Made by a program: the position numbers and the translations under genes
DNA from: Takakia lepidozioides
Lineage: Eukaryota; Plantae; Bryophyta
Assembly (NCBI GenBank): GCA_030704615.1
Contig: CM060731.1
Span: 15,624,001-15,688,000 of the forward strand
Length of the DNA stretch: 64,000 bases
Direction: 5' to 3'
Notes under the pieces: generated by a model
Database searches by the model: none
Told to the model about the DNA's origin: nothing
Seen by the model: only the letters and a program-made list of their open reading frames with translations
In this document: in pieces, positions 17,197 to 62,479 of the stretch
Layout: each line of letters starts with the position of its first letter
How positions within the stretch are numbered: the stretch's first letter is position 1

Positions 17197-17518
17197 ACCA
17201 CCAATGGGTAGCTTCAATGGTTAGAGCTCTAAGTGCCACCAGGTTCAAATCCTGCTACGTTGTATCTTCTCCCCATTCCCTTGGGGGTGTCCCATGAGCA
17301 ATGCCATCAGCGCCTCATGGCATGGTTACTATGAAAGAGGTTACCATAATTTACACTTCCTTCCTAGAGGCGTCATTGCTTTCTTTTTTGAAAGAAGTTC
17401 TGGCTTGGAAAGAGAATCTGGCTCTGCCCAATGTTTATTCTTATAGCATGGTTATTCTTATAGCATTTCGGGGCCTCCGACCCTTGTTAAAAAAAAAAAA
17501 AGAGGGAAAAACAAAACA
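17197..17518 (+). mobile_element. tRNA-derived SINE
   Basis: A-box-like tagcttcaatgg (17209-17220), B-box ggttcaaatcc (17242-17252), poly(A) at ~17489-17501, imperfect TSD aaactt(t/c)gacc on both sides. Confidence 0.6.
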
Positions 17519-41794: not shown

Positions 41795-43241
41795 TCAAAC
41801 CAGGCTGTGACGTTTCACAAAACAGGTCCCCAAACAGATGCTAACATCTCCACACAAGGCACAAAAAAACCTTTGTCGGGCACCACACTCGACACACTTC
41901 CTTCTCCTAGCACTTTTTTGAGAGAAGTGAAGTGCTCCCGGGTCTGGAACAGAAGCCCCTTCCAAGACAGTTCTCATGGGAGCAACCCACCCGACAATCA
42001 ACCCATTGGCCACTTGAATGTTGAAGAGCATATGAGACCGCGGCTTCCTGTCCTTCTCTTTCATCCAAGCCAGATACAACAAATAAGAATTCACCAGCGA
42101 TGTGTCAATGCTATGAAAGAACAAGCGGTGCGACCACTTGTGATCACGCGTTTGCACGCTGTAGTAGCCCCTCAATTGATCCTGCACATCAACCCCCCTC
42201 ATGTGTTCTTGATAGTGCTTCACAATGGGGGAAGTGGGGACCATGCGGCGAGCACCGTTGTGCCACCGCTCAATGAAGCAATGTGCCCCCACAGGGCTGC
42301 AAGCAGTGCTCAACAATATGACTGGCTTGTTGTCAAACCAAGACAGTGCCACCAATTTGTTAGATCTATGCATGCGGTACTGCATAGTGCCTCTCTCTCC
42401 TCTCTTTCCAAAATCAAGACATGAAGGGAATCCCACCCGAGTTGTCTTCACAGTACCAGTAGCATAGATATTTTGGACAGCCAAGTCATAGAAAAGAATA
42501 GGACTAGTAAAGAAATTATCCATGGTCACTATGTGCCCTTTCCCCTCAAAACCAGCCAGCAATCTGGTTACAACAGAATATCCCTGCCCGTGTGTCAAAT
42601 CAATTGCATCATCACGGCCAAGGTACACCTCCATCTTGTGAACATATCGGCTTTTGGCACCAGCCAAGCACCACCACTTTATACCCCATTTCACTGGTTT
42701 TTTTGCTCATATACTGCTGCAGGTTAGAGTACTTACCTTTGTACTTCACCATCATCTCATCCACACACAGGTTTTGATCGGGTTGCCAGTAGCGAGCATA
42801 CAAGTCATTTTGCTGGTCTAACAACCAACGGGTCTTTGCGATTTTATCATAAGCAGGGGCTGATTTATCCACCTCCACTAACCGGTTGTCCACTAGGTGC
42901 AAACACCTCAAAATTGCTTCCCATCTATTGCGACTCATGATGCGCATAATGGAAGGACACTTGAAGAACTCATTGTTACCTTTCCAGTAACATCTTGTGT
43001 TGGGCAATCTCTTGATTCCCATGAGAATATGAACTCCCAACCACGCCTTCAATTCCACAACACTCACAGGATACCACCACTCTCCCCCCTTCATTTGTCC
43101 CCTTCTATATAAGGTCTGGACATACAGGTTTGTCATTCTGCAGATTTTCCGCATCACAGGTGCCGGCCAGAACAAATTGAAAAAATCTACAGGGAGAGCA
43201 CTATCATCCAAAGGCACCTTATGACCCGTCTCCCCCCCCAC
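41795..43241 (-). pseudogene. piggyBac DDD transposase (PGBD-like), one-base frameshift in the A7 run at 42698-42704
   Basis: FFNLFW, ELKAWLG, IMSRNRWEAILRCLHL, LCVDEMMVKYKG (D1), K(P)VKWGIK, VTMDNFFTSP (D2), MRGVDVQDQL (D3), C-terminal Cys-rich CVEC..CALC..CLGTCF..H. Confidence 0.9.
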
Positions 43242-43679
43242 TCCACGTTACCTGAGGCAGCTCTGTGCACTGTGAATTCCACATGTCATCTGCCAATTTA
43301 TCTTTCGGTGGCCATTCATGCCAAGATTCAGCCAATCATAAAGCCTGAGCTCATGGGCCGCATTTCCAGTGTCCACACAGTAATCCCACAAAGTCTGGAT
43401 CCTGACCAGCATCTGGATTACCTCTCTCTTCCTCTACCGGATCATAGTCAGAGTCCGAGTCACATTCTGTCTCAGATTCAGACCCTACCGTGTTCTCAAC
43501 AACATCATCCAAACCAAGCATGGCACTTACTGTAACTGGCATAGGCTCGTCAAGGTCCACAGGAAGGCAAACATGAGAGGGCACGGTATGCACCCCAAGC
43601 CCAGCAAAGAAGGAGACAACATATGTATCAGACGCACTCACAATATCCCACGACTTGTCCACGACAGTACCATAACCAA

Positions 43680-43851
43680 TGTCGTGCGCATACATATCGC
43701 TACACAACTACATCGCTGTCCAAAACCACACAACACATGTGCACACCACACACTAGTATACCACTAGTCTACCACTAGTCCAGCCACTAGGCTACAACTA
43801 GTCAGTCACTAGGCTGCCACTACGCTGCCCACTATGGCAGTCACTAGTCCA
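43680..43851. repeat. Terminal repeat B2 (direct copy of B1)
   Basis: tgtcgtgcgcatacatatcgc...gtcactagtcca; matches 44185-44368 except for one 12-bp ccactagtccaa unit. Confidence 0.95.
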
Positions 43852-43855
43852 TTAA

Positions 43856-44182
43856 TGATAAAGAAGAAGAATACAAGCACAAGCTCATGCGAGCTCACAA
43901 AGCTGAAGCATAAACTCATGCATATATAACCTCATCACTCAAATACAAGTCAAGCCAAGTGCACCCCACGCCATGGGGAATCCACACTACGGCGCCATAG
44001 CTAGGCGCGGTGAGGCTCAACTCGAGAAAGATGAGCCTCCCGCGCTTGCCGTGAAGATAACCACTCCAGGGCCTAAATCTGCCTTGACCCCTGGATTGAC
44101 ACTTGGGCCAATCCCAAATGTCAATATGTAAAAGCTAGCTATTTCCTAGCTAGTTTCACACTAGTGGTAAAATAACTTGACA
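43856..44182. repeat. Terminal repeat A2 (327 bp)
   Basis: tgataaagaagaag...aataacttgaca; identical by eye to 54936-55262. Confidence 0.95.
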
Positions 44183-44184
44183 GC

Positions 44185-44368
44185 TGTCGTGCGCATACAT
44201 ATCGCTACACAACTACATCGCTGTCCAAAACCACACAACACATGTGCACACCACACACTAGTATACCACTAGTCTACCACTAGTCCAGCCACTAGTCCAA
44301 CCACTAGGCTACAACTAGTCAGTCACTAGGCTGCCACTACGCTGCCCACTATGGCAGTCACTAGTCCA
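44185..44368. repeat. Terminal repeat B1
   Basis: Direct copy of 43680-43851; separated from A2 only by the dinucleotide gc (44183-44184). Confidence 0.95.
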
Positions 44369-44372
44369 CACA

Positions 44373-44384
44373 ATCGCCCCCCTA
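44373..44384 (-). other. Polypurine-tract candidate
   Basis: Element strand reads TAGGGGGGCGAT immediately before TGTG-TGGACTAG, the start of B1. Confidence 0.6.
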
Positions 44385-44632
44385 GCTGGTGCTTAGGTCC
44401 CTCTAAGTCCAGGTAGCCACAAGATGTGATAGTGACCATAGCCTCACTAAGTCCTCCACCACTATCCCTACTACACTCAAACTCGATAGATCAAGAGGCC
44501 GGGTGCAAGAGTTGCCCCATCGTTAGTCGCCGTCTTGCAACCTGTGAACTTGAGCTTGGGATCTCATGTATTGACTCCTATGAGCTTGGCCTCCCATGTC
44601 TTGTTAGCTGCCTCCAGTCATGTCCACTGCCA

Positions 44633-47600
44633 CTATCCCAAGCAGTGTGGACACAACCAATCTCCGTCAGGAACCTTCTCAAGAGGTGGTGTCAAGCATC
44701 CCATATGCCAACCCCTTGAGCATCGATCACACACCAGCATGGTGGCTGCCCCTTTGGCAGACCCACAGAGCATGCACCTCAAACCTGCAGGTACCACTGC
44801 CAAGTTTGGGTCAACTCTGCCATCGACATTGGGAAGGTGACATGGCGCACAATTACGCACATGGTCCTTCCAAGTCATGCCATCCCGACCCTCCAAGATC
44901 AGGACCCCTGAGGGCAACACCTCTCGAACCCTCAGAATAACACGCCCTGCAGTAACATCCAGAGTCGTAGGAGCAGTCTGCTGCAAATAAACATAGTCAC
45001 CAGGGCTAAACCTCCGAACCCCAGGACGATATCCTCCACCACGTATAGTGGCATACCTCAACGTATCACGGTGCTGTGCAATGGCAAGGTTCTCAAAAGC
45101 CATGGGCATGACTTTCTTGAACAACTCTGCACGCTGATCACATGCACGTACCCACACGTCCGGATCGTCAAGGTTAAGGACTTGAGCAGTGTCCCTACGA
45201 ATGGCTGCAGGCAAATCCGGCTCTCGGCCAAAGAGAAGGAAATATGGTGAGAAGGAGGCAAGTGATGCTTGTTTGCTGAACCTGTAGCCCATGGCTAACC
45301 AAGGAACCTGAAGATCCCAATCTCCTAGGTGTCCCTTCTGCAAGCCATACTTGCGCAAACCCCTCTTCACCGTCTGAACAACTCTCTCTGCTAAGCCATC
45401 GGCCTCAGGATGATCCCGAGAAGTGGTGCGGTGGTCTATCAAGGCTTTATCACACAAAGCCTGAAACTCCCCCAAGAACTCTCTCCCTTGGTCCGTGAGT
45501 ACCTCAGCTGGAGCACCAAATCGGCTAAGCACACGATCCAAGAATGCATACGCAGCCCCCTCACTAGCCTTGTCAGGCAATGGAACCAACTCAATCCACT
45601 TGGAGAAGTGCTCCACCATCACCAACACATATCTGTGGTGGCGCATAGTCAGTGGCAACGGTCCTGCGAAGTCAAGACTCCACCTGTAGCCCAATCCCAT
45701 GATAGGTAAAGGATGCAACTGTGGTGTAGGGGCGTTGAATGAAGCACGCACCCTGTCACACACCATGCACCTAGCCACAAACTGTTGCACCTCTGTATGC
45801 ATACCACGCCACCAATACTGCCCCTGCAGTAAACTGTGAGTGCGTCGCACTCCAAAATGCCCCAACTCCTCATGGGCATGCCGCACTAACCGTGCACGCT
45901 GTGTGGGGTGAGGCACAATCCTCACCCGACCATCCTCCCACACTCGAAGTAGGTGTATCCCCTCCCACTTGAACCTCTTGGCTCGTTGCAGGATCCGATC
46001 CCTCTCCCTGGCAGTCACAATGGCTGCCGTGTCTCCCGTGCGGAGGTAGTCCAACACAGCCGAATCCTCATGTATATCTCTGGCACCACCTAGCTCATCA
46101 CTAGCCTCAGGGTCCTCAGACACTCCGTCTACAGTCATCCCTGTTGTAGGTCCAATCTGACCTCCCGATGCCAAGATACACAAAAATGCAGATGCGTGCC
46201 ATCCCGGCACCATCTCCTCGTCCGTCTCACCATGCCACCGAGCTCCAGTGTCATCCTGCTGGCTCATGCATGGATTGCGACTCAATCCATCCGCATCCCG
46301 ATTGACCAAACCCGGTCGATGCACAACCTGAAAGTCATACTCCTGGAGTATAAGTGCCCACCGTGCAAGCTTCCCCGTAAGCTTGTCTGACTCCATCAAC
46401 CACTTGAGTGGCTGGTGATCCGTGACAAGGGTGAAAAGATTGCCGTATAGATAGCACCTGAAGTGTGCCACGGCCCACACTGCAGCTAAGCACTCTCCCT
46501 CATATGAGCTGTACTTAGCCTCTGCAGCGTTGTTCGAGCGGCTAGCGTAAGCCACTACGAACTCTCTTCCCTCATCATCCACCTGTGTGAGCACCGCTCC
46601 AAGCCCCAGCATGCTCCAATCCGTATGCAGCTGAAAGGGACGCCCCCTGATAGGTCGTCTCAAGATAGGCGCCGAGGTCAACCTCGCCTTGAGCTCTTGA
46701 AAAGCTCGTTCCTGCTCATCTTCCCACTGCCACTCCTGGTCCACCTTGGTCAGCTTGGTTAGAGCCTTTGCAATGGTACTAAATCCCTTGACAAACCGTC
46801 TATAATAGTTTGCCAACCCCATGAAAGCTCGAACTCGGCTCACATCCGTGGGGCGTGGAATTTGTGCAATGGCCTCTACCTTAGTCTGCTGTACCCCCAA
46901 TCCTCCAGGATATATCATGTGACCCAGATACTCAATCTGGTTGTGGAAAAACTTGCACTTCCCCGGATGCAACTTCAATCCGTGCGCTCTCAAGCGCTCC
47001 AATACCACCTGAAGGTGTCTCTCATGCTCCTCCATCGTAACACTAAAGATGATGATGTCATCTATGTAGCACCGAGCAAAGTCCACCCCTGCTAGAATCC
47101 TATCCATGACTCTCTGAAACTCTGCAGGAGCATTCTTAAGCCCAAATGGTAAGAACCGCCACTGATATAGGCAATCCTTGCCGTGCTCATTGATCCCCCA
47201 GAATGCCGTCTTCTGCTTGTCCGCCTCCTTGATTGGCAACTGGTGATATCCGGATCGTAAATCCAAAGTGCTAAAGGCCTTAGCATGCCCGATGGCATCA
47301 AAGATCTCCTCTGGTGTTGGCATGGCATACTTATCGGACTTGGTCTGACGATTTACAGGCCGGTAATCACCGCACATACGTCTCTCCGTCCAATTGCCAT
47401 AGACATCCTTCTTGGCTGGCATCACTGTGGCTGAAGCATACTCTCCACCAGAGAGCTCCACCAAACCTGCCTCCCAGAGATCTTGAGTCCTCATCTGAAT
47501 CAAAGACCTCTCCATGTCACTGTATCTATAGGGTCTCCGAAAGATTGGCGTGTCAGTGGCCAACTCAATACGGATCTCTTGACCCTTCAGTGCTCCCAAG

Positions 47601-47767
47601 TCCTTCAAACTGAAGGCAAAGCAATTCCTGTAAGCCCTCAGGAACCGCCGTATACGTCGTCTCTCTCCTCCGGTGACAATGGGTCCAATGTCAGGCTCCC
47701 AATTGTCCTCCGTAACTACAACCTTAAGTCCAGTGGGCTTAGAGGTAGAGGACGCGTCCCGTGGTTG
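44633..47767 (-). CDS. Pol: reverse transcriptase, RNase H, DDE integrase, C-terminal PHD finger; in frame with upstream ORF behind one TAG
   Basis: RMCGDYRPVN, LDLRSGYHQ, LPFGLKNAP, YIDDII (RT); LHTDWS, YSSYEGE, VTDHQPL (RH); H..GH..CMVC, WSLDFAGP, LTDQGREF, GLAER (INT); CMLC..CDRC..HMGC..CPHC (PHD, 44642-44779). Confidence 0.95.
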   Translation of the reverse strand, partial: QPRDASSTSKPTGLKVVVTEDNWEPDIGPIVTGGERRRIRRFLRAYRNCFAFSLKDLGALKGQEIRIELATDTPIFRRPYRYSDMERSLIQMRTQDLWEAGLVELSGGEYASATVMPAKKDVYGNWTERRMCGDYRPVNRQTKSDKYAMPTPEEIFDAIGHAKAFSTLDLRSGYHQLPIKEADKQKTAFWGINEHGKDCLYQWRFLPFGLKNAPAEFQRVMDRILAGVDFARCYIDDIIIFSVTMEEHERHLQVVLERLRAHGLKLHPGKCKFFHNQIEYLGHMIYPGGLGVQQTKVEAIAQIPRPTDVSRVRAFMGLANYYRRFVKGFSTIAKALTKLTKVDQEWQWEDEQERAFQELKARLTSAPILRRPIRGRPFQLHTDWSMLGLGAVLTQVDDEGREFVVAYASRSNNAAEAKYSSYEGECLAAVWAVAHFRCYLYGNLFTLVTDHQPLKWLMESDKLTGKLARWALILQEYDFQVVHRPGLVNRDADGLSRNPCMSQQDDTGARWHGETDEEMVPGWHASAFLCILASGGQIGPTTGMTVDGVSEDPEASDELGGARDIHEDSAVLDYLRTGDTAAIVTARERDRILQRAKRFKWEGIHLLRVWEDGRVRIVPHPTQRARLVRHAHEELGHFGVRRTHSLLQGQYWWRGMHTEVQQFVARCMVCDRVRASFNAPTPQLHPLPIMGLGYRWSLDFAGPLPLTMRHHRYVLVMVEHFSKWIELVPLPDKASEGAAYAFLDRVLSRFGAPAEVLTDQGREFLGEFQALCDKALIDHRTTSRDHPEADGLAERVVQTVKRGLRKYGLQKGHLGDWDLQVPWLAMGYRFSKQASLASFSPYFLLFGREPDLPAAIRRDTAQVLNLDDPDVWVRACDQRAELFKKVMPMAFENLAIAQHRDTLRYATIRGGGYRPGVRRFSPGDYVYLQQTAPTTLDVTAGRVILRVREVLPSGVLILEGRDGMTWKDHVRNCAPCHLPNVDGRVDPNLAVVPAGLRCMLCGSAKGAATMLVCDRCSRGWHMGCLTPPLEKVPDGDWLCPHCLG

Positions 47768-50700
47768 CTATGCTGCAACCTCTTGAGCAGTACTCCCTAC
47801 CTGCTCAGTCAATGACAAGGCATCATCCTGCCCCATCATCTCATCCTTGAGGACCTCCTCAACTCGAGAAGAATCCCCAACCTCATCCATCACAGCCGCC
47901 TTGGCTGCCAACTCCCTCTGAACCTCGAGCACCTCCCACGTGTGCCATGGATGCATGCACCCCGTGGTCCTCATATGCTCGCCCCCACTCACTGCCTGTA
48001 CCGTCTCGGTAGGCAGAGAGACCATTGAGGGAAGTGTATTCCGCACTCTGCGTTGCTCAGCTAGAGCCAAGCTGATAATCCAGGTCAAGCAATTGAGATC
48101 CATTGCTTGCCCCAACACTTGACGACGTGATGCCTCAGAAAGAGACGACACCGCCGTGGTACCAGTGGTAAAACCCATTGCCCGCTCACGCTCGTCAGCA
48201 TTAGGCTCCACTAACTGCTGCAACTGAGCATCCCACAGGAGGCCAGGTCCACTATCCCGGAAAGCATGCGATCCTGGGAAGCTGAGCAGTGTAGGTAATG
48301 CTGCTCGTGGTTGACCCACCTTGTTGACCACTGCCAAAGGCGAACGGTCATCGTGTCTCACACGTTGAGACTGCCTCCCTGTGTCCAGAATGTTATCCAC
48401 TGTGAGATGTGCTGGCCGCTGCACCCCATCAAATGCACGCTTGAGCAGTGCGGGTGGCATCATGTTAGTCCACCATAGCCGTGGACGATGAGCCCGTGAC
48501 CCCACTGTAGCTGCATCTAGCAACACTGCTGACCCAAGCCACGACCGGACTTGATGCACACTGGCCATCACCCTGGCCCGAGAATCGCCCATCAGTGGCA
48601 CATTCTCCAAGATGTATGCTGGAGATACAGCTTGATGAAGCTGCAAGTGGCGCAAAACCCGCACCATCTCCCAAAACAGACCCGACCTCGAGTCTCGCAA
48701 TCCATTGCCATGCCCGGCTGATGAATGCCCTTGGCAGGGCCAACCTGCCACTACCAGATCAATGGAGCCAACCCGCTCCAAATCCTGCGCCCCCAGCAAC
48801 GAAATGTCTGCTGGCAAGGCCTGCTGATATCCACGAATTGCAGACACCGACAACAACTCAGGGTACCGCTGCACCAACTGAGCAACATGGCGAAGTGAAA
48901 CGCGTCGTGCAGTCTCATCCCTCTCCACATACAGGTAACGCCGAACTCGTACACCTGCCTGTAACACAGCAGCCAATCCGGTGCTGATCCCGCCAAACAA
49001 GTCCAGAAGACAAATGCCTTCATCCGGAGACTGCCACACAATAGGTGTGGTGTCCAATGGAGACAATTGAGGTGGTCCTGGTGCAATCCCCACACTCTCC
49101 TCCTCTCCTGACGGTACAAAAGCCTCCACCCAGGCTTGTTGCACCCGTCGATCAGCATCCCGCTGCAAATCCTTGCTCGTGCCCCACAATGGAGTCTGAG
49201 CAACCATGGTAGGCAACTCCGCCATACCATACATGTCATCCTGCTCTCCCGGAGGTGGTACATCCTCTGAATGAGCATTGCCCTCAAGCAACTCTCTAGG
49301 CCAACTCACTGCCGCTGTGAATGCTGCTAGTGTCGGCATCTTGCCTCGCTGGGCAACCGCAACTCCTCCTATGAACGTCACAGGGAGCTGCACACGCCGG
49401 CCCTCCCCTGACTGCCATGCAGGCCTATAGGAAGCTGACTCCTCCCAAAAATCCAGGGTGAAGCCCATGGGGTACAACACTGCCCCACCAACCAGGACAT
49501 CGTATGAGACTGCGTCTGTCACAATGGCCTTGGCTCGCATCACTGAGCCATCTGTAGGGTGATCCGGCCGTAGTCTGATAGCCAACTCATGCCGTGTCAT
49601 GCCCCGAGCCTGCTCCGATCCTCCCAGAGACGTCTGTATCTGGAAAGGACAAGGCTCCATATCCGCCTCCGTGAGGCCCAAGCCTGCAATAGCAGCTCTG
49701 CCCAGCATCAGTGGCTGAGCTCCCGAGTCCAACAAGACTCGCAGTGGCCGGTACCTCTTGCCTGCCGGTCCACTCAAACAGAAAATGCCATCCTGGTTGT
49801 CTAACATGACAACTCCAGGTGTCACCATGGCGCGCTCAATGGCTGGCCTAGCTGGCAGCTCCATCAACCTGGCAGCTGCAGCTTGCCATGGCGCCGCCGT
49901 GGCAGTCTTGACCCTCAAATCCGAGGATCCCTCCGGCACTACACCTCCCACTATCTCCGCAGAAGATGAAGTAACCTCCCCACTCTCACAGAGTGTAGCT
50001 GCCAGCCTGAACACCTCAGCTGGTCTTACCCCCGGCGTCGCAATCATGGTAGCCGAGAACAATGGAGCCTGGCACACAGATGTGGCCGCTCCTAGCAGCA
50101 CACTAGCTGCCGTAGCCTTGGCAACACTAGGTAGTGGTGCTACCCGTGTAGCTCTCCCCAATGGCATAGTAACCTCCGCCTCGGTAACAGTCGGGCGAGA
50201 ACTAGGTGCCATGGATGGCGTCGACACTGTCTCCGCCAATGTGAATGACTGAGGAAGCCTAGCCTGACGGCTTGCCTCCCCACGCTGTGGATCCAACTCC
50301 ACCTCTGCACCTCGTGGCTCAGGAACTCGTGCTGCTCCTCGAGTCACGGCTGCAGCAGACTCCACCTGCACTAGTGGTAGTGCTGCTCCACACATGAATC
50401 CCATGCCTCCCATATCTCCTCCCTCAGGAGCAGGAGGTGGACCATCCGGCCTTAGAGCCGGTACCACCTGAGCTGTAGCCATGGCAGCGAGCCTCTGCTC
50501 TAGCTGCTGAAGCCGGTTGGCCATGCCTTGGTCAACACCCTGACCTCCGCGTCCTTGGCCACGTTGAGCTTGCCCTTGGCCTGCACCTCGTGGCTGGCCA
50601 CCTCGTCCCCTCTGGGCTGCTCCACCTCGCCCCCGGCCACCATTGTTCCCTTGGAACTGGCCTGGGCGCAACTCAGGATGCAAACCATAACACTGGCCTC

Positions 50701-51937
50701 TCCATGCCCGTGTTGCCACAATGCCCACACTGTAACTGTGCAGGCTGTGCATGTGCCGGCCCTTTGCCTCCCTCTGGAAATCCTTCTTGACATGGGGTCC
50801 TCCACATGTCCAGCACACCACATCCGCCCGTTGTTGGCCAGCAAATGAAGGGAGAGACCCCTGCATCTGAGGTCCTCTCTGCCCTTCCCTGAGCTTCACC
50901 TGAGCCCCCTTGTTGCCTTGAGCACGTTGAGGTAGTGGTTGGCTAGGAGCACCACTACCCCGTGGTGTCTCCTTAGCAAATCCCACCATGACCACTCGTT
51001 CCTCCACCATGTTGAGCTCTATCCGCTCTGCCAGCAAAAACACATTTGCTAAGGTGGGTTGGGCCGCTTGTAGGAGAGTTGCATCCCGCACCCTTCTCCT
51101 CAGCTCCTTGTCCAATATCCCATACCAGAATTGGACTGCCTGAGCTTCCGTAACCCCTTGGGTTACATTTATCAAGCGCCTCATGCGAGTGAAAGCCTCC
51201 CTCAAGCTCTCGGTCGGCTTCCGTTGGAACTCTTGCAAGCTCCGCAACTTCTCTGTCCTCACCCCTTGGTAGTTCCCTCTCAACTCTTCGAAGAACTCCA
51301 CAACAGGGTTGAAGGCAGGCACGGGTGCTAGTGCTGGTGCGGTAGTGGCTTGGGTGGACGTCGTAGCTACTGTACCACCAGTCCCACTGCTGCTTGCTGA
51401 AGCTGCCGGTGCAGCGGCAGGTGTAGCCACTGCCCTCGTGGCTCTAGTGCCCCTAGTGATGGAGACATAGTCGGGTGACCAGTACATCCTCCACTCCTCG
51501 ATCTCAACCTCATGCCCCCGCCTGAACTCATGGTAATCATCCATAGGCGGCCCCTCAAGGTGCTGAAACAGCCCTTTCCATGCCATGAACGGCGTAAATA
51601 GTTGTGGATTGCGCATTTGCTGCAAATCACACCAACTATCAAACTCTTGGATAAAATCATCCAACTCAATGGTGCCCACCGCCCCAGAGTACCTTCGTGG
51701 CCCCTTGGTAGCTCCATACATCTCCTCCATTGTGTCCCACAACAATGGCAAAGAAACAACTTGCACCGCCGGTATGAGCCCTCCTGATTCACAATCCGAA
51801 TCAGAACCTTCCGTGGAAGACACAGGAGGTGAAGGTGGCCTAAACCGCACACCTCGTCTCGTGTACCCACTAGTATCGCTAGTGCTCGAACCGGCACTGT
51901 CCCCAGCAACTAGTGGCACCTCCGTGTTGACACTCAA
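47768..51937 (-). CDS. Gag - aspartic protease - cytosine-5 DNA methyltransferase polyprotein (first ATG at 51730)
   Basis: Gag-like FQRKPTESLREAFTRMRRL and CWTCGGPH knuckle; protease VLLDSGA (~49715-49744); C5-MTase motifs I-X at ~48060-49020. Confidence 0.92.
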   Translation of the reverse strand: MSVNTEVPLVAGDSAGSSTSDTSGYTRRGVRFRPPSPPVSSTEGSDSDCESGGLIPAVQVVSLPLLWDTMEEMYGATKGPRRYSGAVGTIELDDFIQEFDSWCDLQQMRNPQLFTPFMAWKGLFQHLEGPPMDDYHEFRRGHEVEIEEWRMYWSPDYVSITRGTRATRAVATPAAAPAASASSSGTGGTVATTSTQATTAPALAPVPAFNPVVEFFEELRGNYQGVRTEKLRSLQEFQRKPTESLREAFTRMRRLINVTQGVTEAQAVQFWYGILDKELRRRVRDATLLQAAQPTLANVFLLAERIELNMVEERVVMVGFAKETPRGSGAPSQPLPQRAQGNKGAQVKLREGQRGPQMQGSLPSFAGQQRADVVCWTCGGPHVKKDFQREAKGRHMHSLHSYSVGIVATRAWRGQCYGLHPELRPGQFQGNNGGRGRGGAAQRGRGGQPRGAGQGQAQRGQGRGGQGVDQGMANRLQQLEQRLAAMATAQVVPALRPDGPPPAPEGGDMGGMGFMCGAALPLVQVESAAAVTRGAARVPEPRGAEVELDPQRGEASRQARLPQSFTLAETVSTPSMAPSSRPTVTEAEVTMPLGRATRVAPLPSVAKATAASVLLGAATSVCQAPLFSATMIATPGVRPAEVFRLAATLCESGEVTSSSAEIVGGVVPEGSSDLRVKTATAAPWQAAAARLMELPARPAIERAMVTPGVVMLDNQDGIFCLSGPAGKRYRPLRVLLDSGAQPLMLGRAAIAGLGLTEADMEPCPFQIQTSLGGSEQARGMTRHELAIRLRPDHPTDGSVMRAKAIVTDAVSYDVLVGGAVLYPMGFTLDFWEESASYRPAWQSGEGRRVQLPVTFIGGVAVAQRGKMPTLAAFTAAVSWPRELLEGNAHSEDVPPPGEQDDMYGMAELPTMVAQTPLWGTSKDLQRDADRRVQQAWVEAFVPSGEEESVGIAPGPPQLSPLDTTPIVWQSPDEGICLLDLFGGISTGLAAVLQAGVRVRRYLYVERDETARRVSLRHVAQLVQRYPELLSVSAIRGYQQALPADISLLGAQDLERVGSIDLVVAGWPCQGHSSAGHGNGLRDSRSGLFWEMVRVLRHLQLHQAVSPAYILENVPLMGDSRARVMASVHQVRSWLGSAVLLDAATVGSRAHRPRLWWTNMMPPALLKRAFDGVQRPAHLTVDNILDTGRQSQRVRHDDRSPLAVVNKVGQPRAALPTLLSFPGSHAFRDSGPGLLWDAQLQQLVEPNADERERAMGFTTGTTAVSSLSEASRRQVLGQAMDLNCLTWIISLALAEQRRVRNTLPSMVSLPTETVQAVSGGEHMRTTGCMHPWHTWEVLEVQRELAAKAAVMDEVGDSSRVEEVLKDEMMGQDDALSLTEQVGSTAQEVAA
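48060..49020 (-). other. C5-cytosine methyltransferase catalytic domain inside the retroelement polyprotein
   Basis: LDLFGGI (I), YVERD (II), ADI (III), DLVVAGWPCQ (IV), DSRSGLF (V), ILENV (VI), AHRPRLWWTN (VIII), ERERAMGF (IX), LGQAM (X), in unpermuted order. Confidence 0.93.
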
Positions 51938-52659
51938 CCGGTCATGAACATGTCCCTAACCCCCTCTTCACAAGGTAACCGGGTAGAGAACCTGTTGCGG
52001 CTTATGGTTTGGAATACTAAGTTCCTAACATAGCCTACACCTGTACCTGCATCCACCGCAAGCACTCCTATGGTTGGCTGGTCATCACCTCCAACCTCAC
52101 CACAGGAGAAACAATGATGGTCTGGCTGGTCATCACCCCAGCCTCACCATCGACAGCATGCTCTAGGACTGGCCGGTGATCAAATCCGGACCAATCACCT
52201 ATAAAAACAAGCGCCCACACAAAACTAGCATGGCGCACAGTCAAGCATGCAGGTATGGAGGGGATCCAAACACAAGAAATCAGATCGACAACTCCCCCAC
52301 ACCAAAAACAACTCCACGGTGTTGCTCCTGCAAGGACACCCCAGCCCAAACCCGGACTGACTCTTGCCTCCACCTACGGAAAGGTCTTGGCCTAATGAGA
52401 GGGTGGAAACTACGAGGAAGAGAAGCTAAAGCAATGCCTAACCCCAGCATGCTCTCATCCCAACACTCTGCCTCTCCTCTCTACCCTCACTTGCATGACC
52501 ATGGGAATATCATGAAGATACTCCTCAAACCGCCCTCCACGAGCTTCAAAATTTGGCCTTCCAGACCACATGCCAGTCCTTAGGCAGTCCACCAGTGCCT
52601 CCATGAGTCAGCACAGGTCAACACGGTCCACCACAGACCAGCACAGGCCTACACAGCTC

Positions 52660-54045
52660 ACTGGTCACAGCCGTCACAGTCCCACAGGCCACTGGGCACA
52701 GCCTGTCGCAGCCCCTCACAGCCTGTCACAGCCTCAAAGGCCTCAGGCACGGCCTGTCACAGCCCGTCACAGCCCGTCACAGCCCCAAAGGCCATGGGCA
52801 CGGCCTGTCACAGCCCCTCACAGCCCGTCACAGCCCCAAAGGCCTCAGGCACGGCCTGTCACAGCCCGTCACAGCCCCAAAGGCCTCAGGCATGGCCTGT
52901 CACAGCCCCTCACAGCCCCTCACAGCCTCAAAGGCCTCAGGCACGGCCTGTCACAGCCCCTCACAGCCCGTCACAGCCCCAAAGGCCATGGGCACGGCCT
53001 GTCACAGCCCCTCACAGCCCGTCACAGCCTCACAGGGCACAGGGCACAGCCTGTCACAGCCCATCACAGCCTGTCACAGCCTGTCACAGCTTGCCACAGC
53101 CCGTCACAGCCCGTCACAGCCTCAAAGGCCTCAGGCACGGCCTGTCACAGCCCCTCACAGCCCGTCACAGCCTCAAAGGCCTCAGGCACGGCCTGTCACA
53201 GCCCCTCACAGCCCCTCACAGCCTCAAAGGCCTCAGGAACGGCCTGTCACAGCCCCTCACAGCCCGTCACAGCCCAAAGGCCATGGGCACGGCCTGTCAC
53301 AGCCCCTCACAGCCCGTCACAGCCCCAAAGGCCTCAGGCACGGCCTGTCACAGCCCCTCACAGCCCCAAAGGCCATGGGCACAGCCTGTCACAGCCCGTC
53401 ACAGCCCCACAGGCCTCAGGGCACAGCCTGTCACAGCCCCGCACAGCCCGTCACAGCCCCAAAGGCCACTGGGCACAGCCTGTCACAGCCTGACACAGCC
53501 CGTCACAGCCCATCACAGCTTGCCACAACCTGTCACAGCCCGTCACAGCCCCACAGGCCAGAGGGCACAGCCTGTCACAGCCCATCACAGCCCATCACAG
53601 CTCCACAGGGCACAGGCACAGCCCATCACAGCCTGTCACAGCTTGCCACAGCCTGTCACAGCCCGTCACAGCCCCACAGGCCAGAGGGCACAGCCTGTCA
53701 CAGCCCATCACAGCCCATCACAGCTCCACAGGGCACAGGGCACAGCCTGTCACAGCCCATCACAGCCCATCACAGCCTGTCACAGCTTGCCACAGCCCAT
53801 CACAGCCCGTCACAGCCCCACAGGCCACTGGGCACAGCCCGTCACAGCCCGTCACAGCCCCACAGGGCACAGGGCACAGCCTGTCACAGCCCCTCACAGC
53901 CCGTCACAGCCCCAAAGGCCTCAGGCACGGCCTGTCACAGCCCCTCACAGCCCGTCACAGCCCCAAAGGCCTCAGGCATGGCCTGTCACACCCCTCACAG
54001 CCCGTCACAGCCTCAAAGGCCTCAGGCACGGCCTGTCACAGCCCC
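52660..54045. repeat. ~1.4-kb minisatellite of 10-bp tcacagcc-core units with higher-order repeats, in the retroelement 5' leader
   Basis: Around a hundred gtcacagccc/ctcacagccc/atcacagccc units punctuated by aaaggcctcaggcacggcct or aaaggccatgggcac. Confidence 0.97.
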
Positions 54046-54919
54046 TCCCTTCCTTCCTTGCACTCCCACACCTGAAAGTGCAAGCCTTCACCAGGCTGAT
54101 AGCATGCTCCACACATGCATTGCCCTCACATAAGGGAAGTCAGCCCTTCCCTCTTCCTTGCTTGCCCTCCAAGCTTGAAGATGGAAGCTTCAAGGAGCTG
54201 AATACATGCTCCACACATGCAACCTCTTCACACAAGAGATATCAGCCCCCTATCTTGGCTCCTTGGCTCCTTGATGCTCTCTAAGACAAGACTAAGCACT
54301 CCATAGCCTTTGCCAAGCTCCTGAAACCCTAAGGCTTACATTTCCAGCCACAAGACACTTCTCTTGTGGTGCAAGAGCTCTTCTTCCAAGCTCTGTAACC
54401 CTAGGTGTACATTCCATGGCCTTGCCGCACCTCTTAGCTCCTGTTCCAGCCCTGCTCTCGCCATGACAAGAGCCCTCTCAATGCTGAAGCTCGAGATTGA
54501 AACCCAATCTCACCATACTCCACAAAGTGCACTGATTTGCCCCAAGCCAAATCAGCCCTTTCGCTTGGTCTTGCAATCCTTCACACAATGACAGCTCGCA
54601 TTCCCAAGTCCAGTTCTCAGCTTTGCCACCAAAGCCACTATAACCTGCTCTTGACTGGTCCTCTTCCCAATCGTGCTTGCTCATGCATGTACACAATCTG
54701 AAACCATCAAGGTGCTCTGGAATTACCTACAGTATGGTGCTTTCATCTCTGAAGCTGAAGATCGAATGCCAAGGTTTACCACCTCGTAACCCACATCGCC
54801 TCCGCTTCTAACAACCAAGAGCTCCACGGTGCTCCTTGCATAACAACTTGGTTTCTCTCAATCTCAAGCAAAAACCACAAGTGCTACAACTAACTCGTAT
54901 CTAGCACTCATAGATACGA

Positions 54920-54936
54920 GCTCATCTTTCTCGAGT
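54920..54936 (-). other. Self-priming primer-binding-site candidate
   Basis: gctcatctttctcgagt abuts repeat A1 and is the perfect 17-nt reverse complement of actcgagaaagatgagc inside A (55100-55116; also 44020-44036). Confidence 0.7.
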
Positions 54937-55262
54937 GATAAAGAAGAAGAATACAAGCACAAGCTCATGCGAGCTCACAAAGCTGAAGCATAAACTCATG
55001 CATATATAACCTCATCACTCAAATACAAGTCAAGCCAAGTGCACCCCACGCCATGGGGAATCCACACTACGGCGCCATAGCTAGGCGCGGTGAGGCTCAA
55101 CTCGAGAAAGATGAGCCTCCCGCGCTTGCCGTGAAGATAACCACTCCAGGGCCTAAATCTGCCTTGACCCCTGGATTGACACTTGGGCCAATCCCAAATG
55201 TCAATATGTAAAAGCTAGCTATTTCCTAGCTAGTTTCACACTAGTGGTAAAATAACTTGACA
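54936..55262. repeat. Terminal repeat A1 (5' end of the retroelement)
   Basis: Identical by eye to 43856-44182; not followed by B. Confidence 0.95.
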
Positions 55263-58200
55263 CCAAATTCTTGGACGTTGGAAGAAGAAGCCATGTTAGG
55301 CAGGTACAAATGGTTCATTGCAACCTTTACAGTGGATCCCAGCACCCCTAGATCTTCCCAAGATTGGCTATGACCTGCAACATCTCTAGCAACTTGAGAA
55401 CTACGCAGAGAATATGCAAGACCCGAATCAAAACCAGAAATTGAACTCGCAATGTCATCAAGTCTCACATGCCCATAAATCGTTCTTACCTCTGGACCTT
55501 GCTACTGCCTTCAGTCTCATCGTTGGTGGCAGATGAGGATCCATCAAAATCAGGCCACACAGATAGCCTCAAACACTCATTTACCTCGGGAGAAAAGCCA
55601 TGTGGATCACCTTCCTCTTTACGATCAACCCACCCGAGAATCTCCGCAGCCTGACGACGATATAGGTACCGAAAATTGGCTGGTTTTGGAAATGCGGGCC
55701 ACTTCATCCGCTTGGCCCTCTTCAAGCACATAAGATAATCCTCATTCAAACACCCAATCAATTGGGCGACTTGCTCTAGAGAGGCGCCCAAAGCGCGAGC
55801 CCAATTGCCAATAACAAGAGACTCTTCTAGCAAATGCGCAGGAGCTGCTGGAGGCATGTCTGCAGAACCCATGTTGCCTCTCCTATATAGTCACCAGTAA
55901 CGGGCGTAACTAAGAGCCACTTCGCCTCGCGGCTACTGCCCCCTCTTGGGGATGGGCCCTATCTAAGCTGCCTAGGATAATAACTTAGCACCCAACAACA
56001 GTTCCCAGGAAATATTGCCAAATGTGAAAGGAATCCATACCAAATCGTAACAAACTATAAGATTAATCAGATAAGCCTTGAAATCAGCGGCCCAAGATAA
56101 CCAGCATTCCAAATTGTAATGAGCTATGAAATCACATAAGCCTCAAAATCAGCAGCCCCGGACAACAACATACCAAATTGTGACGAACTATGATTATTCC
56201 CAAGTATAAGCCTCAAAATCAGAGTCCCCCAATAACCAGCATACCAAATTGTTGTGAACTACCTATGTATGATTCCTAAGCCTAGAAATGTCCGATCTGG
56301 AGTACAAAATGCAGATAAACCAGAACCCACTGAGGGGGGAGGAGATGAAAAAAAAAGGGTTAAGTGTTAAGTACCTGGATTATATAAGGAAATACACAAC
56401 TCCACAATTCAACTGAGTCTTGTTCATTCCACACAAACAAAGGAAACAAGACTTGTTCAGTCCACAAAACAAAGGAAACAAGACCACACAAACAAAGAAA
56501 ACAAGACTTGTTCATTCATTCAACACAAAGAAAACCAGGGGCAGATGGAGATGGAGAGGGAGAGGGCCCACCTGGGCTTGGGCTGGCATGGCACTCATAA
56601 AGAGGGAGGGCGCTCGTGGAAGAAGACGGGTCAGGTAGCAAAGCGTGTCCGTGCAGCGGCGGCGTTGAATCCGGCGCACCGGGGTTATTATGCCCCACAG
56701 CGATCCACTACCTACCGACCTGCTTGTCAGATGCAAAAGTCTTCCTGCTCTGCAAGATGCCATCGGTGGCATGGACGAACGACTGAGGACGGAGCAGTGA
56801 TCTCGTGCTGCAACCGACCTCCGACTTCTCCTTGAGTTACGGCAAACTTTGAGGAGCTGCCATGGCTTGGTGGGGGTTGTAGCAAGTATTGAAGGAGGAG
56901 CTCTTGCATAATTTCACCTCTCGTGATGGAAGTCCACTGTTGGACGCAAATGTGCGAGTAGGAAACAAACACTGAAATTTCGATACAATCAACAACGTAA
57001 CTTGTTCTGACCACTATTGTACCCTAACAAACACTGCACGTTATGCTGCAATCAAAATCCCCAAATAGACATATGGCCACACTTACTTCTCCACTGCAAC
57101 CACAACTCCTCAAGTTTCTCATTTCACATCAGATGGTTTAACCTCATTGATCATCAATGCAGGCACGTGCACCACCGTTCTCAGCCGTGTGGGGGCCACA
57201 TGCAGTCGCTATATGTTCAGAACCTTGTACATGTCTACTGCGGCTTGGTTGATTGGTGAAGACTTCGGTGTAACCTCTTAGTACTACTCACTTCTGTCTG
57301 TTTCTCTGGCGGTGAGGCATCTCTACGCCTCTTCTGGCGCGTCTCCACCTCAGTATCGGGCTCTACATATCTGATACTGTGGATGCGAGAAGCTTATGGG
57401 TTGAAAGTGAAGCTCTGAATTGATGTATCATTGACCCTCAACAGCAGCATTGCTCCTGATGCTCCTTAGAGCTTGTACTCTGAAAGAGGGTTGGTTCAGG
57501 TTTCTCCTTGTCGCAGTTGCAAGATACTTAACATGCTACATCGAAATCGCGAGATTCCTCCAACTCTGCTATCAATCTTGCACCTAAATTTGTTGAGGTT
57601 AGTTTCTCTTGGTCATGATCTGAGGCATACTGGGACTTGCAGAGTAAAGGGTGGTGGGAGGGTATATGTTGTACTCGAGATCTTCATCCTTGAGATTCAT
57701 AAGCGACTGAAGGTCTTGCTAGGCCCGGGGTCCAGGATGAGAGAAGAACTTCCGGTTTCTCTTTCTATGGCTTTGTATTTTAGATGGACTAGGCTCGAGC
57801 GAGGAGAGGGATGACGACCGCGGGAGCAGCCAGTCATCCTCAAGCTAGGTTGCTCATGAATCAGAATTGACGGATATGTAGGAACACTTCGCTTCATGGA
57901 AAGAAAAATCCTGAGCGATCTTCCGAGAGTTGCAACTCCGTGAACTCTTAGAGATGGGTGCAAAATGTTTTCAAAGTCTCGGGTTCGGTGTGGAGGATGA
58001 ACCCACATGCGATGATGTGTGCAGAACTTATAATGGGATCATGACATACTCGAATGGTGTCACCGAATCTGAATCAAGCTAGCGAAAGTCTCATCCTCAA
58101 GACTACTGCACAACTGGGGATTTGGACCCTGACATGTATCCAGATTTCGGACGTCAGATGCGCCTACGGGAATCAAAATTTGCAGGCAGAATTAGACGAG

Positions 58201-58382
58201 AATTAGACGTGCGATACGGCATGCTTGTGCAGAATTCTGATACTCGGTAGCTGGAGCTGCATTACAAAGTGTCGGCCGGCAAATTGGTCTACAGAATGCA
58301 CATATGTAGGCATTCTACTGCATAGCCAATGTACGCACGGACTTTTGAAGTCGGTAGACGCTCCTCGTCGGGGGCATTACCA

Positions 58383-61026
58383 ATGGGAAGACGTCGGCAG
58401 ATTGATTTGCTCGCGGTGCTCTTACTGGCGACATGCCTGGTGTTCCCCGTACCTTGTCAGTCGTCGCCAAGCAACATGCCGTTGAACTCCACACTACAGG
58501 CAAGCTTGAATGCGACTTTGTTGTCACCTGGTGGAGTATTTGAGCTGGGATTTTACGCTGGGATGCGGTCAAAGTCAGCCTCCACCGTTTACACGCTTGC
58601 AATCTGGTACGCCCAGACATCTCCTGTGAAGACAGTGGTGTGGATGGCAGACAGATCTATGAACCTGAGCAACAACGCCACTCTAACATTGTCTGAACAA
58701 GGAGAGCTTCAGGTGTACGATGGCAACTTGGCTCCGCAACTCATGTGGACTTCCAATACAACAAATGTAAGCCGAGGATGATCCAGTTCGTATTTCGTGC
58801 CATTTTCCTGCAACCAAATGTCTGTCTGGGTTGTCTGGGGCGATTGCAAAACTAATACTGCTCAAAAAGTTTCTAGTCCCGACTGATTCTCTTAGACTGT
58901 GGGTTGTGCAGTTGAATGTGAGCCAGGCCGTCATGTTGGATACGGGGAACCTTGTCCTCCTCAACATAAGCAACAGTATCGCGTGGCAGAGCTTCGACAG
59001 CCCCACAGACACTCTCTTGCCAGGCCAGCCGTTTGTCGCAGCCGCCAACATAACCATGTTCGCATGGCAGAAACGCGGAGACTGGACCAAAAGTTTATAC
59101 TCGTTGAACTGGACCAGTGACTACAATCTCGATGCCTCCTGGCAATCTCCTTATCCCGGCTGGTCTAACTCAGTTGGTCCCAGCTATTGGAGCTTTTCGA
59201 CACCTTCCTTGTCCGCCGATTTGACATCCGAGGGTGTTTTCCAGGCAACCAATGCGACAGGAAATGTGACTGTGATAGGAACGAGCAGCGACGTGGGGTT
59301 GAAGAGTCGTCTACGACGGGTCACATTCGATTATGATGGCAACCTGCGCATGTACAGCTGGTTTGTTGGGAACTCCACAGAGTGGAGTATTGTGTGGGAA
59401 GCGATTACCGACATCTGCACCGTGTATGGAGAATGCGGTCCTTTCGCGATCTGCATAGCCGGAGGACAGTGTGAATGTCCTTCCGGGTTTCAGTTTGTTG
59501 ATGCCAATGACACCACCCAAGGGTGCACGCGGATCAAAAGCATTTCTCTTTGCAGCGCCGTCGACCAGGCTATGACTCTTGTGGAGTCTGTCGACTATCC
59601 CAATGGTGGTGATTACAACTACTATGGGAATGTGGACTTAAGTACCTGCATAGATCTATGCTTAAGCTCATGCTTCTGTCAAGCTTGTACAGTGACGACA
59701 CCAAATTCAAATGGGAATTATAGTTGTTGGCACAAGAAGGACTTCCTCCTCGACGGTCAATACAATAACGCACGCACCACCTACATACGAATGGCTCAGA
59801 CACATCACGGCCTCCCGTCTTCGCAGAAACTTGCAATACTGGGCGCAACACTAGGTGCAACGATCGTCTTTCTCGGAGTCTCGTTATGCATAGTTGGGTC
59901 TTTCATTGTCCGCCGAGAGATTAGAACTCGTCGTATCAGAAAGTTGGAAGAAAAATGGAAAGAGTCGCGAGGCACCATCGTAAAATTTACCTACGAAGAG
60001 ATTCGACTCGCGACCAGGAACTTTGCTGAGGAAATTGGGAAAGGGGGTTCTGGATCCGTGTTCAAGGGAGAGATTGGAGACCAGGTGGTTGTTGCCGTGA
60101 AACGATTGGACAAACTGAGCCCCGAGGAAACGGAATTCGTGAATGAGGTCGACACCATAGGACGCATTCACCACGGCAATCTGGTGGACCTCCACGGCTA
60201 CTGTGCTGCGGGCGACCACAGGCTGCTGGTTTACGAGTACATGGAGCGAGGCTCTCTTGACAGGGCCCTTTTCCGAGCTAATGAAAACAACGTACCCATT
60301 CTTGAATGGAGGTCTCGCTTCAAGATCGCTGTCGAGACAGCGAAGGGCCTCGCATATCTGCATGAGGACGTTAGAGGCCAACGCATTATCCACTGCGACG
60401 TCAAGCCTGAGAACATTTTGCTGGATTCCATGTTGTCCGCCAAGGTAGCAGATTTTGGGTTGGCCCGGATCATGAACAAGGACCAGACTCGCACCATGAC
60501 GATAAATATCCGAGGCACTCGTGGCTACGTGGCACCGGAGTGGACTACTGATCACTCCATCACCACCAAAACCGATGTCTACAGCTATGGAATGGTGCTG
60601 CTGGAGATCATCAGCGGCAGGAAGAACTTGAAATTCAACCTCGACAATGCCAATGCCGATGCCGATGCCGCCCCCGACTGGTACTATCCGCTTTGGGCAT
60701 TTTCGAAAGTTGAAATGGGAGCCTTCCTTGAGGTTGTCGATCCATTGCTGTGCGGAATTGTCAACGCTGAGGAGGTCGAAAGAGCTGTGCTGGTGGCGTT
60801 CTGGTGTATCAACGACAAGCCTCATCTGCGGCCTTCCATGGCCAAGGTTGTGCAATTTTTGGAAGGCCATATCCCTGTAGAGCTTCCAGTTCCACGACCC
60901 GTTTTACTAGACGATATGGTCGTTGCTACTGAGAACTTAGACTCCACCTCATTGAAGCTCTCATCGTCCTCTTCCGAGGCCTCACAACAGTTGCGTTTTT
61001 CTGAAGGCCATCCCACTCCCCGCTGA
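58383..61026 (+). CDS. G-type lectin S-domain receptor-like kinase, copy 2; exons 58383-58766 and 58912-61026
   Basis: Same architecture and intron as copy 1; intact ORF; longer C-terminus because of a 5-nt indel. Confidence 0.93.
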
Positions 61027-62479
61027 CTTCTCCAAATTGGCAGATTTCGACCTGGAAAATGAGTCAGCTACTTGTACAAAGGAATTACGGGGGTAAAGTC
61101 CAAAAATTTCGCCAAAAAGCACCAGTAGTTGAGATTTAGGAGGCTAATTTTGCAGACGTGGACCAGTTACAGCGTGCCACTTGGAATAAAGCCACTTTTT
61201 CTAGCCCTGCCACCTCGTTATTCTCGCCACATGGGCACTGGATAGGATTCACATGTGGCCCGCCAGCGATTTTGTAAAAATGAGAAAACAAACAAATTAT
61301 GTTGTCTGTTGATTCCCTGCTGGCATCCGTCGAGAAGGTGGACCCCTTGTGACACCAATTGGTGGATTGAACCCAAAACCACTGGGCTTTAGTTCCACCC
61401 AATCGGGGTGCGAGTCTATGGCCACAAGGCTATGGCAAACAATGTCTTATGAGTACATTCTGATTTCGACTAATAATAATATACGACGCTTTCCGAAGGA
61501 AGCGTGATCCTGGTGTCTTCTTTATAGGAGAAGGGTCTCAAGAACTATGATATTTTTCGGTACGTTCTCAATCTCAGAAAGCACTTTGAGATTTTTCTCT
61601 TTGTTATTATCCGCTCCCTCTAGAGCATATTGGCGTGCTTGGCTAAGGCAATGTAATCCACGCCCAGGGAATACCCTGGTACGGAGGGCGGTGCAATCCA
61701 CTTTGGTGGAATGCACTGCCATACCTTTTTTTTGTTGCACCGGCTTTTTGTAGGGCATTCCTCGATATTCGGGCATTCCCTAGGGCTCCCGCCAGTGCCC
61801 TTATATCGAGGAATGCCCTCCACTCTGGGCCTTTCCTTATAGGTAAGGTATTTTGCCAGCGTGGCAAAGACCTTAAGGGGCCGGAAGGTACAGTGCAATC
61901 TACTAACTCTAAGGGACCTAAAAATGAACTAAGAAAAATATCATGGTTCTTTACGCATCTGGTAGGGCTATTACTGTCTTCTGGTAGGAAGTCGGACAGT
62001 GGACACTTTTGTGACACCAGTCACTGAATTGAACCCACTACCGGCGCTTCTTTTTTAGGCGAAATGGAGCCTAAAAGCGATAAAAAAACAAAGGGCTACC
62101 ACAGCCCTATGTAAAATCCTAGGAAAAAAAACAAAAAATGCGCCCAAAAAAAGGGGTGTGCGCAAGGGCTGGTGCTAGAAAGCTCCAGGGGAACATGCAA
62201 ATTGCGCCAGAAATACACGTTCCTCACAACCCTACATCTAGTGGCTGTCGTCCCATCGCGCGATCAACGGTAGAGATCTCGCCATGTAGCACGACCTGGA
62301 CCGTTGGATCGCCAGGGTTTTGGCCGCCTCCAGGCCAGGCCGTCGCCACTGCGCACAGCCCTACGGAGCTTCACCATCGCCATCTCTCCTCGCAGCTTGC
62401 TTTCAAAATTTTGCCTAAGATCTTTATACTGTAGTTTTTTTTAGTGCCATATTACTCTTTCGCATCGGGCTCTGGTACC

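Follow-up and report, generated by a model that had tools for sequence, protein, structure and literature searches.

Two integration ends joined in an internal palindrome: a candidate att site in a split-repeat gypsy-Dnmt3 retrotransposon of Takakia lepidozioides

The window analysed here, a stretch of 64,000 nucleotides of Takakia lepidozioides (Bryophyta; assembly GCA_030704615.1, contig CM060731.1, positions 15,624,001 to 15,688,000 of the forward strand), contains at 43680-55262 a Ty3/gypsy-type retrotransposon with a Dnmt3-like methylase, coding on the minus strand, and inside it a palindrome, GACA-GC-TGTC (GACAGCTGTC, 44179-44188, with the GC spacer at 44183-44184), in which the two ends of the element stand joined. 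Judging from its placement and from related elements, we think it probable, if well short of certain, that this palindrome represents the two integration ends still joined and uncut, a site which the DDE integrase would open in end-joined cDNA of the two-LTR-circle type. For a wider reading, that a whole clade of streptophyte gypsy-Dnmt3 elements integrates only via such end-joined, circle-type cDNA, opened at a conserved CGACA-GC-TGTCA within the LTR, we would put the chances at about even.

The structure of the element follows from two repeats, A and B, found by self-BLAST of the region 38-60 kb. Repeat A (43856-44182 and 54936-55262) is identical at 327 of 327 positions, while the two B copies (43680-43851 and 44185-44368) agree at 93%, with the first 111 nt identical and the gaps amounting to one 12-nt repeat unit. 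Repeat A supplies the left half of the palindrome with its terminus, its second copy ending at 55262 (...TTGACA), and repeat B supplies the right half, its second copy starting at 43680 (TGTCGT...). The first-pass annotation had proposed that the palindrome unites the exact two ends of the element around a 2-nt spacer that the genomic ends lack, and the repeat ends confirm it: the termini lie at 43680 (TGTC...) and 55262 (...GACA), GC is missing at both, and CCAA abuts TGTC and GACA directly. With borders written as slashes, the flanks read ...ccataaCCAA/TGTCGT and TTGACA/CCAAattc, which is a 4-bp target-site duplication (TSD). Read on the plus strand, the element runs as B2, 4 nt, A2, gc, B1, internal part and A1, so that in the sense direction the element reads A1-internal-B1-gc-A2-B2, with its repeats split. 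The features of the element are as follows.

43676-43679, no strand: left TSD, CCAA (the 4 nt abutting both termini are identical)
43680-43851, minus: B2, terminal B copy, forming the sense 3' end (...ACGACA), with the 93% match to 44185-44368
43852-43855, minus: A2/B2 joint, TTAA (B1 has TTGTG), from comparison with family contigs
43856-44182, minus: A2, internal A copy (TGTCAAG...TTTATCA in sense), 327/327 against 54936-55262
44179-44188, no strand: palindrome GACA-GC-TGTC (end of B1, spacer, start of A2), proposed att site
44185-44373, minus: B1, internal B copy, sense start TTGTGTGGACT, the extension to 44373 being taken from A/B joints of the family
44374-44387, minus: polypurine-like tract GCTAGGGGGGGCGA (sense), immediately 5' of B1, a motif that recurs in relatives
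44636-47767, minus: ORF2, with reverse transcriptase (RT), RNase H, integrase (H2C2 and rve, D-D-35-E) and C-terminal PHD finger
47768-47770, minus: in-frame TAG between methylase and RT, context TAG CAA CCA
47771-51955, minus: ORF1 (stop to stop), gag-like part, protease region and Dnmt3-like C5 methyltransferase
52656-54064, minus: tandem repeat array of ~51 nt in the leader
54920-54935, minus: primer-binding-like segment CTCGAGAAAGATGAGC (sense), adjoining A1, complement of A 147-162
54936-55262, minus: A1, terminal A copy, forming the sense 5' end, from self-BLAST and flank reading
55101-55116, minus: segment of A1 complementary to the primer-binding-like segment (A2 counterpart 44021-44036)
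55263-55266, no strand: right TSD, CCAA, from flank reading

The bare 10-mer is not significant in the 64-kb window (1 match with at most one mismatch, against 2.08 expected), and the weight of GACAGCTGTC in the window rests on its placement, not on its rarity.

The coding part has the domain order gag, protease, Dnmt3-like methylase, RT, RNase H, DDE integrase and PHD finger, laid out in one frame from 51955 to 44633 (minus strand; 2,440 codons) whose only stop is the TAG at 47768-47770. In ORF1, Pfam recognises a C5 DNA methylase (PF00145, 1.7e-12) and, weakly, a gag domain, and the best match of the methylase to a solved structure is DNMT3A (6.6e-11). In ORF2 the matches are, in order, RVT_1 (4.6e-33), RT_RNaseH (1.3e-35), Integrase_H2C2 (2.3e-16) and rve (1.7e-13), and the integrase triad D-D-35-E is readable in the translation; the integrase is of the DDE (rve) type. 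A Pfam search of 15 ORFs (the two main ones and 13 others of at least 120 aa) gave no tyrosine recombinase, and because the 13 further ORFs have no Pfam match of any kind, we conclude that the element has none.

Several details of this coding part may be recorded separately. The TAG at 47768-47770 may be a site of programmed read-through between gag-protease-methylase and RT-RNase H-integrase, or it may be a plain mutation; its context, TAG CAA CCA, resembles the leaky stop of plant viruses, and in some relatives the ORF is single and continuous, without this break. The PHD finger (1.8e-10; 44636-44770, minus strand) closes the integrase of ORF2, is common among relatives, and occupies the place at the integrase C-terminus where chromoviruses have a chromodomain; it may steer integration through the reading of histone tails. 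The leader tandem repeats, ~1.4 kb of G+C-rich units of ~51 nt, lie between the primer-binding-like site and gag.

Regarding the class of the element, the order of RT, RNase H and DDE integrase is that of gypsy, and the 4-bp TSDs, present in 4 of 4 elements with both ends, fall within the short range (4-6 bp) of that group. In place of two complete terminal LTRs with a primer-binding site (PBS) and a polypurine tract (PPT), the element starts with A at the 5' side and finishes with B at the 3' side, and the sole complete LTR as defined by these two sites (B-gc-A) is internal, on the 3' side. The split direct repeats, A1-internal-B1-A2-B2, are those of DIRS elements; the tyrosine recombinase and the absence of a TSD that go with DIRS are not found here. 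A Dnmt3-like methyltransferase in a gypsy polyprotein and a DIRS-like arrangement of repeats, the two marks of gypsy-Dnmt3 elements, are both present, and we file the element as a gypsy-Dnmt3 retrotransposon, not as a DIRS element; its predicted mode of action is that of an integrase-cut end junction.

Elements of the Ngaro/PAT type are the split-direct-repeat members of the DIRS order. Split-repeat DIRS elements are described as A1-internal-B1-A2-B2 without TSD (PMC8969392), and the present element resembles them both in repeat order and in that the internal B1-A2 joint equals the two termini joined; it differs in that they use a tyrosine recombinase and make no TSD, whereas the present one encodes a DDE integrase, is flanked by a 4-bp TSD and has PBS-like and PPT-like sites. 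The closest described counterpart is KnitGypsy-Dnmt3 of Klebsormidium nitens, to which the legend of Fig. 4c in de Mendoza 2018 (PMC5890265) ascribes a DIRS repeat structure with gypsy-typical domains. Both have the gypsy domain set, a Dnmt3-like methylase in the polyprotein and the A-coding-B-A-B layout; the two are likened by description, the sequence comparison covering Marchantia polymorpha (the nearest named, 53-68%), Sphagnum and Closterium. A 2026 preprint mentions "streptophytes (Gypsy-DNMT3)". In the literature searched, we found no description for gypsy-Dnmt3 elements of an att palindrome, of TSDs, of PBS or PPT placement, or of a mechanism. Within that literature, the split-repeat layout of a gypsy-Dnmt3 element has been noted once, in 2018, and the palindrome and the proposed mechanism appear to be new.

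The borders of the repeats carry the marks from which the LTR can be defined. The segment that follows A1, CTCGAGAAAGATGAGC, pairs perfectly over 16 nt with A positions 147-162, a match that 0 of 500 shuffles reached. Two relatives, L025 and L019, have another sequence in this place (CTCAAAGAACTATGTT), which pairs perfectly over 16 nt with A 164-179 (again 0 of 500 shuffles); that different sequences after A1 are each complementary to their own A amounts to covariation. Eight copies in all were tested in this way, and shorter exact complementarity, which speaks against the reading, was found in L003, L005, L016 and L026 (9-11 nt) and in L009 (7 nt, not significant). In four more distant loci, L035, L039, L051 and L056, a self-complementary PBS was sought and none convincing was seen. 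On the other side, the motif (A/G)CTAGGGGGGCGAG precedes B1 in L003, L011, L012, L015 and L025, and 8 of 11 other families have a run of at least six G at a distance of 69-330 nt upstream of the palindrome. Bounded by these two kinds of site, primer-binding-like behind A and polypurine-like in front of B, the LTR is B-gc-A and contains the palindrome, and by the same sites the integrated copy appears as a circular permutation of the PBS- and PPT-defined genome. LTR retrotransposons of the Tf1 type prime themselves, and the likeness to them, a segment after the 5' repeat that complements a segment in that repeat and covaries between families, may point to Tf1-type self-priming here as well.

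Retroviral-type integrases nick 3' of CA and typically discard 2 nt. The proposed cycle would begin with an RNA running from inside A1 to inside A2, on which reverse transcription would be started by self-priming of the Tf1 kind and would proceed in the ordinary way to a linear cDNA, (B-gc-A)-internal-(B-gc-A). The ends of this cDNA would be joined, which would create the A/B joint and the equivalent of a two-LTR circle. The integrase would then bind the symmetric site and cut GACA-GC-TGTC on each strand 3' of CA, so that both resulting ends would carry a recessed CA-OH and an overhang of 5'-GC, the shape of a processed retroviral end. GC would be lost and the TSD made as these ends are inserted at a stagger of 4 bp and repaired, and opening of the palindrome in the upstream LTR would yield exactly A-internal-B-gc-A-B. 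Such a cut after CA on both strands, as inferred in the first-pass annotation, fits every terminus that we have seen.

The first-pass annotation had named two observations that would speak against its proposal, a spacer that varies among copies and copies that end elsewhere, and relatives of the element bear on both. A search with the methylase region returned 38 proteins, of which the best named are hypothetical proteins of Marchantia polymorpha (53-68% identity), followed among named sequences by Sphagnum and Closterium, besides many unnamed metagenome proteins that combine methylase, RT, integrase and PHD finger. A scan of metagenome contigs with an 18-sequence alignment matched 235 stretches, of which 122 were confirmed as relatives and 80 loci kept; viral contigs scanned with ORF2 gave no match. 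In these 80 loci (603,378 nt), GACAGCTGTC occurs 14 times, in 14 loci, against 0.48 occurrences expected from base composition. The spacer is GC in 14 of 15 related loci with the site, the sole exception being L018 (GACAGTTGTC), where GT is a C>T change relative to the sister locus L023 (GC). The site stands in 12 sequence contexts, the window included, that are unalignable beyond ~14 nt, and the 10-mer with the A that follows it is invariant in all 12.

The ends of other copies are again TGTC and GACA. In L025, whose methylase is 66% identical, the whole design is present with the TSD AAGG: the 5' part reads AAGG/TGTC..A1..TTTTCA/ctcaaag..internal..GGGGGGCGAG/TTGTGG..B1, and the 3' part B1..CATGACA-GC-TGTCATG..A2..TTTTCA-A-TTGTGG..B2..ACGACA/AAGG. 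Ten loci of this family show a flank followed by TGTCATGACC, with 8 distinct flanks (L024 and L025 share a site, as do L026 and L027), which provides 8 independent insertions starting with TGTC, and the PBS-like ctcaaa follows A in 9 of the ten, L002 being deleted there. Each of the 4 elements with both ends in hand has a 4-bp duplication: CCAA (window), AAGG (L025), CACA (L016) and ATGT (L011). At a larger distance, L039 (methylase 38% identical) has its left end as flank/TGTCATGCACGC at 1975, which equals the right half of its own palindrome at 9188; B2 or A1 was sought in the distant families and found in L039 only. The proposal of an uncut joint of the integration ends is therefore supported by comparative sequence, from which the cleavage itself is predicted.

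There are also products other than the full form, as shown by three loci, L011, L012 and L015, which end as internal-PPT-B followed by other sequence, without gc-A-B. Such products would be expected from the cutting of a one-LTR circle or from cuts at both palindromes. In L011, the left end is an internal TGTCA 11 nt from the end of A and the right end is the normal B end, and the former looks like the use of a pseudo-site by the integrase. The ends of L011, at 6230-6260 and 11880-11900, are both flanked by ATGT.

It should be added that conservation is not general. Among 28 loci with at least 1 kb past the last integrase match, the site was found in 13 and was absent in 15, which counts against its universality in the methylase-gypsy clade; a search of the 15 loci without the 10-mer for other CA..TG palindromes gave nothing consistent. 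Some contigs are collapsed or circular, such as that of the distant relative L056, a closed circular assembly of 16,202 nt, so termini cannot show there. L056, together with L053 and L054, also has an extra ORF of >1,900 codons upstream of the methylase-RT-integrase ORF.

The window's own family was followed in Logan contigs from four runs, aligned to 43300-44800. Summed depth over the element is 40,000 to 1.5 million (X1, X3) against ~500-1,100 in the flank, depth not being a copy number. Three RNA read sets (X14-X16) gave 0 aligned reads and a further run (X12) gave 4 contigs, figures that say nothing of expression or of transcript ends. The sequence abutting 44182 is varied (17 contigs, agreement 0.41, X3), as is that abutting 44185 (13 contigs, agreement 0.43, X3), and 1 contig has varied sequence abutting 43680 (X10). 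Varied flanks at TGTC and at GACA mark both as integration ends of the window's family. At the other end of A (43856), the loose ends listed continue only into internal sequence (agreement 0.97-0.99) with no varied flank, and among them the PBS-side end of A gives no sign of being an integration end. None of the variant positions listed (40 of 50) falls in the palindrome. In X1, X3 and X5, flank contigs (1088, 262 and 382 nt) match exactly up to 43679 and no further; beyond it they continue for 641, 22 and 173 letters, respectively, that are not element sequence. These may represent an allele without the insertion, which would fit a very young copy (A1 and A2 being identical, 327/327); a paralogous empty site was sought within the window and not found.

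If the LTR is B-gc-A, the A2/B2 joint is the predicted right end of the cDNA joined to its predicted left end, and its variation is informative. Many contigs of the window's family have the joint ...CTTTATCA/TTGTGTGGACT (TTGTG), an exact join of the A end to the B start, others have TTGAG, and the window has TTAA, despite the identity of A1 and A2 (327/327) and the TTGTG at the start of B1, which makes three joint forms among the Logan contigs. Contigs that bridge the window-type joint have a depth of ~25,000, against ~400,000 or more beside the joint (X1). One additional A is present at the joint of L025, while that of L016/L017 has 16 extra nt, of which the first 9 equal the PBS-like segment; the L016 copy is rearranged, so we give its joint little weight, as it could have another origin. 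A variable joint beside an invariant palindrome fits a joint that is remade in every cycle and a site that is copied through RNA. We also considered CA-TTAA-TG (43850-43857) as a classic 4-nt junction of a two-LTR circle and rejected it, since most copies have TTGTG or TTGAG and TTAA is a variant.

One observation speaks against the circle. A two-LTR circle contains two identical palindromes, and random choice between them predicts an equal share of the permutation A-B-gc-A-internal-B, which was seen in none of 9 resolved 5' ends (8 independent ones of the L025 family and the window); this absence counts against the circle model, although short-read assembly, biased against such copies, may hide them. 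The first alternative is a reversed order of events, in which the integrase opens the palindrome of the left LTR in linear cDNA and inserts the two new CA ends, after which host end joining in the chromosome links the A end to the B start. This route would give the identical product and a variable A2/B2 joint, and the end of L011 at the TGTCA pseudo-site with the TSD ATGT suggests that internal cutting outside the palindrome is possible. It would, however, leave a chromosome break in need of repair at each insertion, and the choice between two palindromes is equally unexplained by it. Both routes use the same att site, with no free circle in the second, and the present data fit both; we regard cutting before joining as unlikely.

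It seems slightly less credible still that the element replicates in the DIRS manner with a borrowed integrase, such that a full-length transcript is copied into single-stranded cDNA, the ends of this cDNA are splinted on B1-gc-A2 and the DDE integrase opens the new joint. For split-repeat DIRS elements PMC8969392 indeed gives the repeat order found here, A1-internal-B1-A2-B2, and the repeats of KnitGypsy-Dnmt3 are called DIRS-like in the legend of Fig. 4c (PMC5890265). Nevertheless, no tyrosine recombinase was found among the 15 ORFs, 4-bp TSDs occur in 4 of 4 elements with both ends where DIRS elements have none (PMC8969392), and the borders of the repeats coincide with PBS-like and PPT-like sites. 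Moreover, the A2/B2 joint varies, once with PBS-like letters, which fits its remaking in each cycle and not its copying from RNA, and we grade DIRS-type replication as the less likely course.

The motif CAGCTG at the centre of the palindrome is a common protein-binding motif, and as a bare sequence the 10-mer is no rarity in 64 kb, but a one-off rearrangement of this copy (by tandem LTR, nested insertion or unequal crossing-over), or another role for the palindrome with an incidental match, is highly improbable, as independent insertions and distant families show the layout, the ends and the TSD length again and the palindrome halves equal the termini to the base.

With the opening of an internal palindrome in end-joined cDNA as the preferred reading, retroviruses offer the nearest comparison. 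Their LTR-LTR palindrome arises only on ligation of the cDNA ends and has a 4-nt centre. The integrase of PFV cuts the palindromic LTR-LTR junction of two-LTR circles (PMC1180852), and tetrameric HIV-1 integrase cuts the palindromic LTR-LTR junction in vitro (PMC1905944), which produces processed ends. Common to those junctions and the present one is a symmetric CA...TG site that equals two integration ends joined, an internal cut by the DDE enzyme being predicted here. In PFV and HIV-1, the palindrome is the ligation joint itself, whereas here it is encoded within the LTR and has a 2-nt centre. Unlike in retroviruses, the ligated cDNA ends (A/B) are non-palindromic here and are left uncut in the integrated copy, and the predicted use of the site would be obligatory, as opposed to a side route.

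Whether retroviruses use a joined-end substrate has been in dispute for decades, and the support there is for a side reaction only. If the integrase uses the internal palindrome, the element would be a natural case of a retroviral-type integrase with a joined-end site as its normal substrate, which would also explain a gypsy element with a DIRS layout; its circular DNA would then be a productive step on the way to integration, not a dead end. If the clade-wide reading is true, these elements would represent a working natural version of the circle-junction model that was abandoned for retroviruses, and the DIRS repeat layout would have been reached convergently, without a tyrosine recombinase. 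As A1 and A2 resemble LTRs, software for LTR finding will misplace the ends of such elements. The fixed site of 10-12 bp (substrate CGACAGCTGTCA) together with a known class of enzyme lends itself to a simple assay.

As for the surroundings in the window, two adjacent ORFs at 41795-43247 (minus strand) match a piggyBac-type transposase (PF13843; 1.7e-39 and 2.8e-36), and as the retrotransposon lies just upstream of this broken transposase, another transposon was probably its target. The retrotransposon also lies between two directly oriented copies of a block of several kb (16381-23420 and 56963-61967; 96-99% identity, ~38.6 kb apart), the second of which has an ORF (58771-61026) encoding B_lectin, S_locus_glycop, PAN and protein kinase domains. 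A 111-nt inverted repeat (12672-12782 and 15609-15719; 80% complementary, arms 2.8 kb apart) may represent the ends of a DNA transposon.
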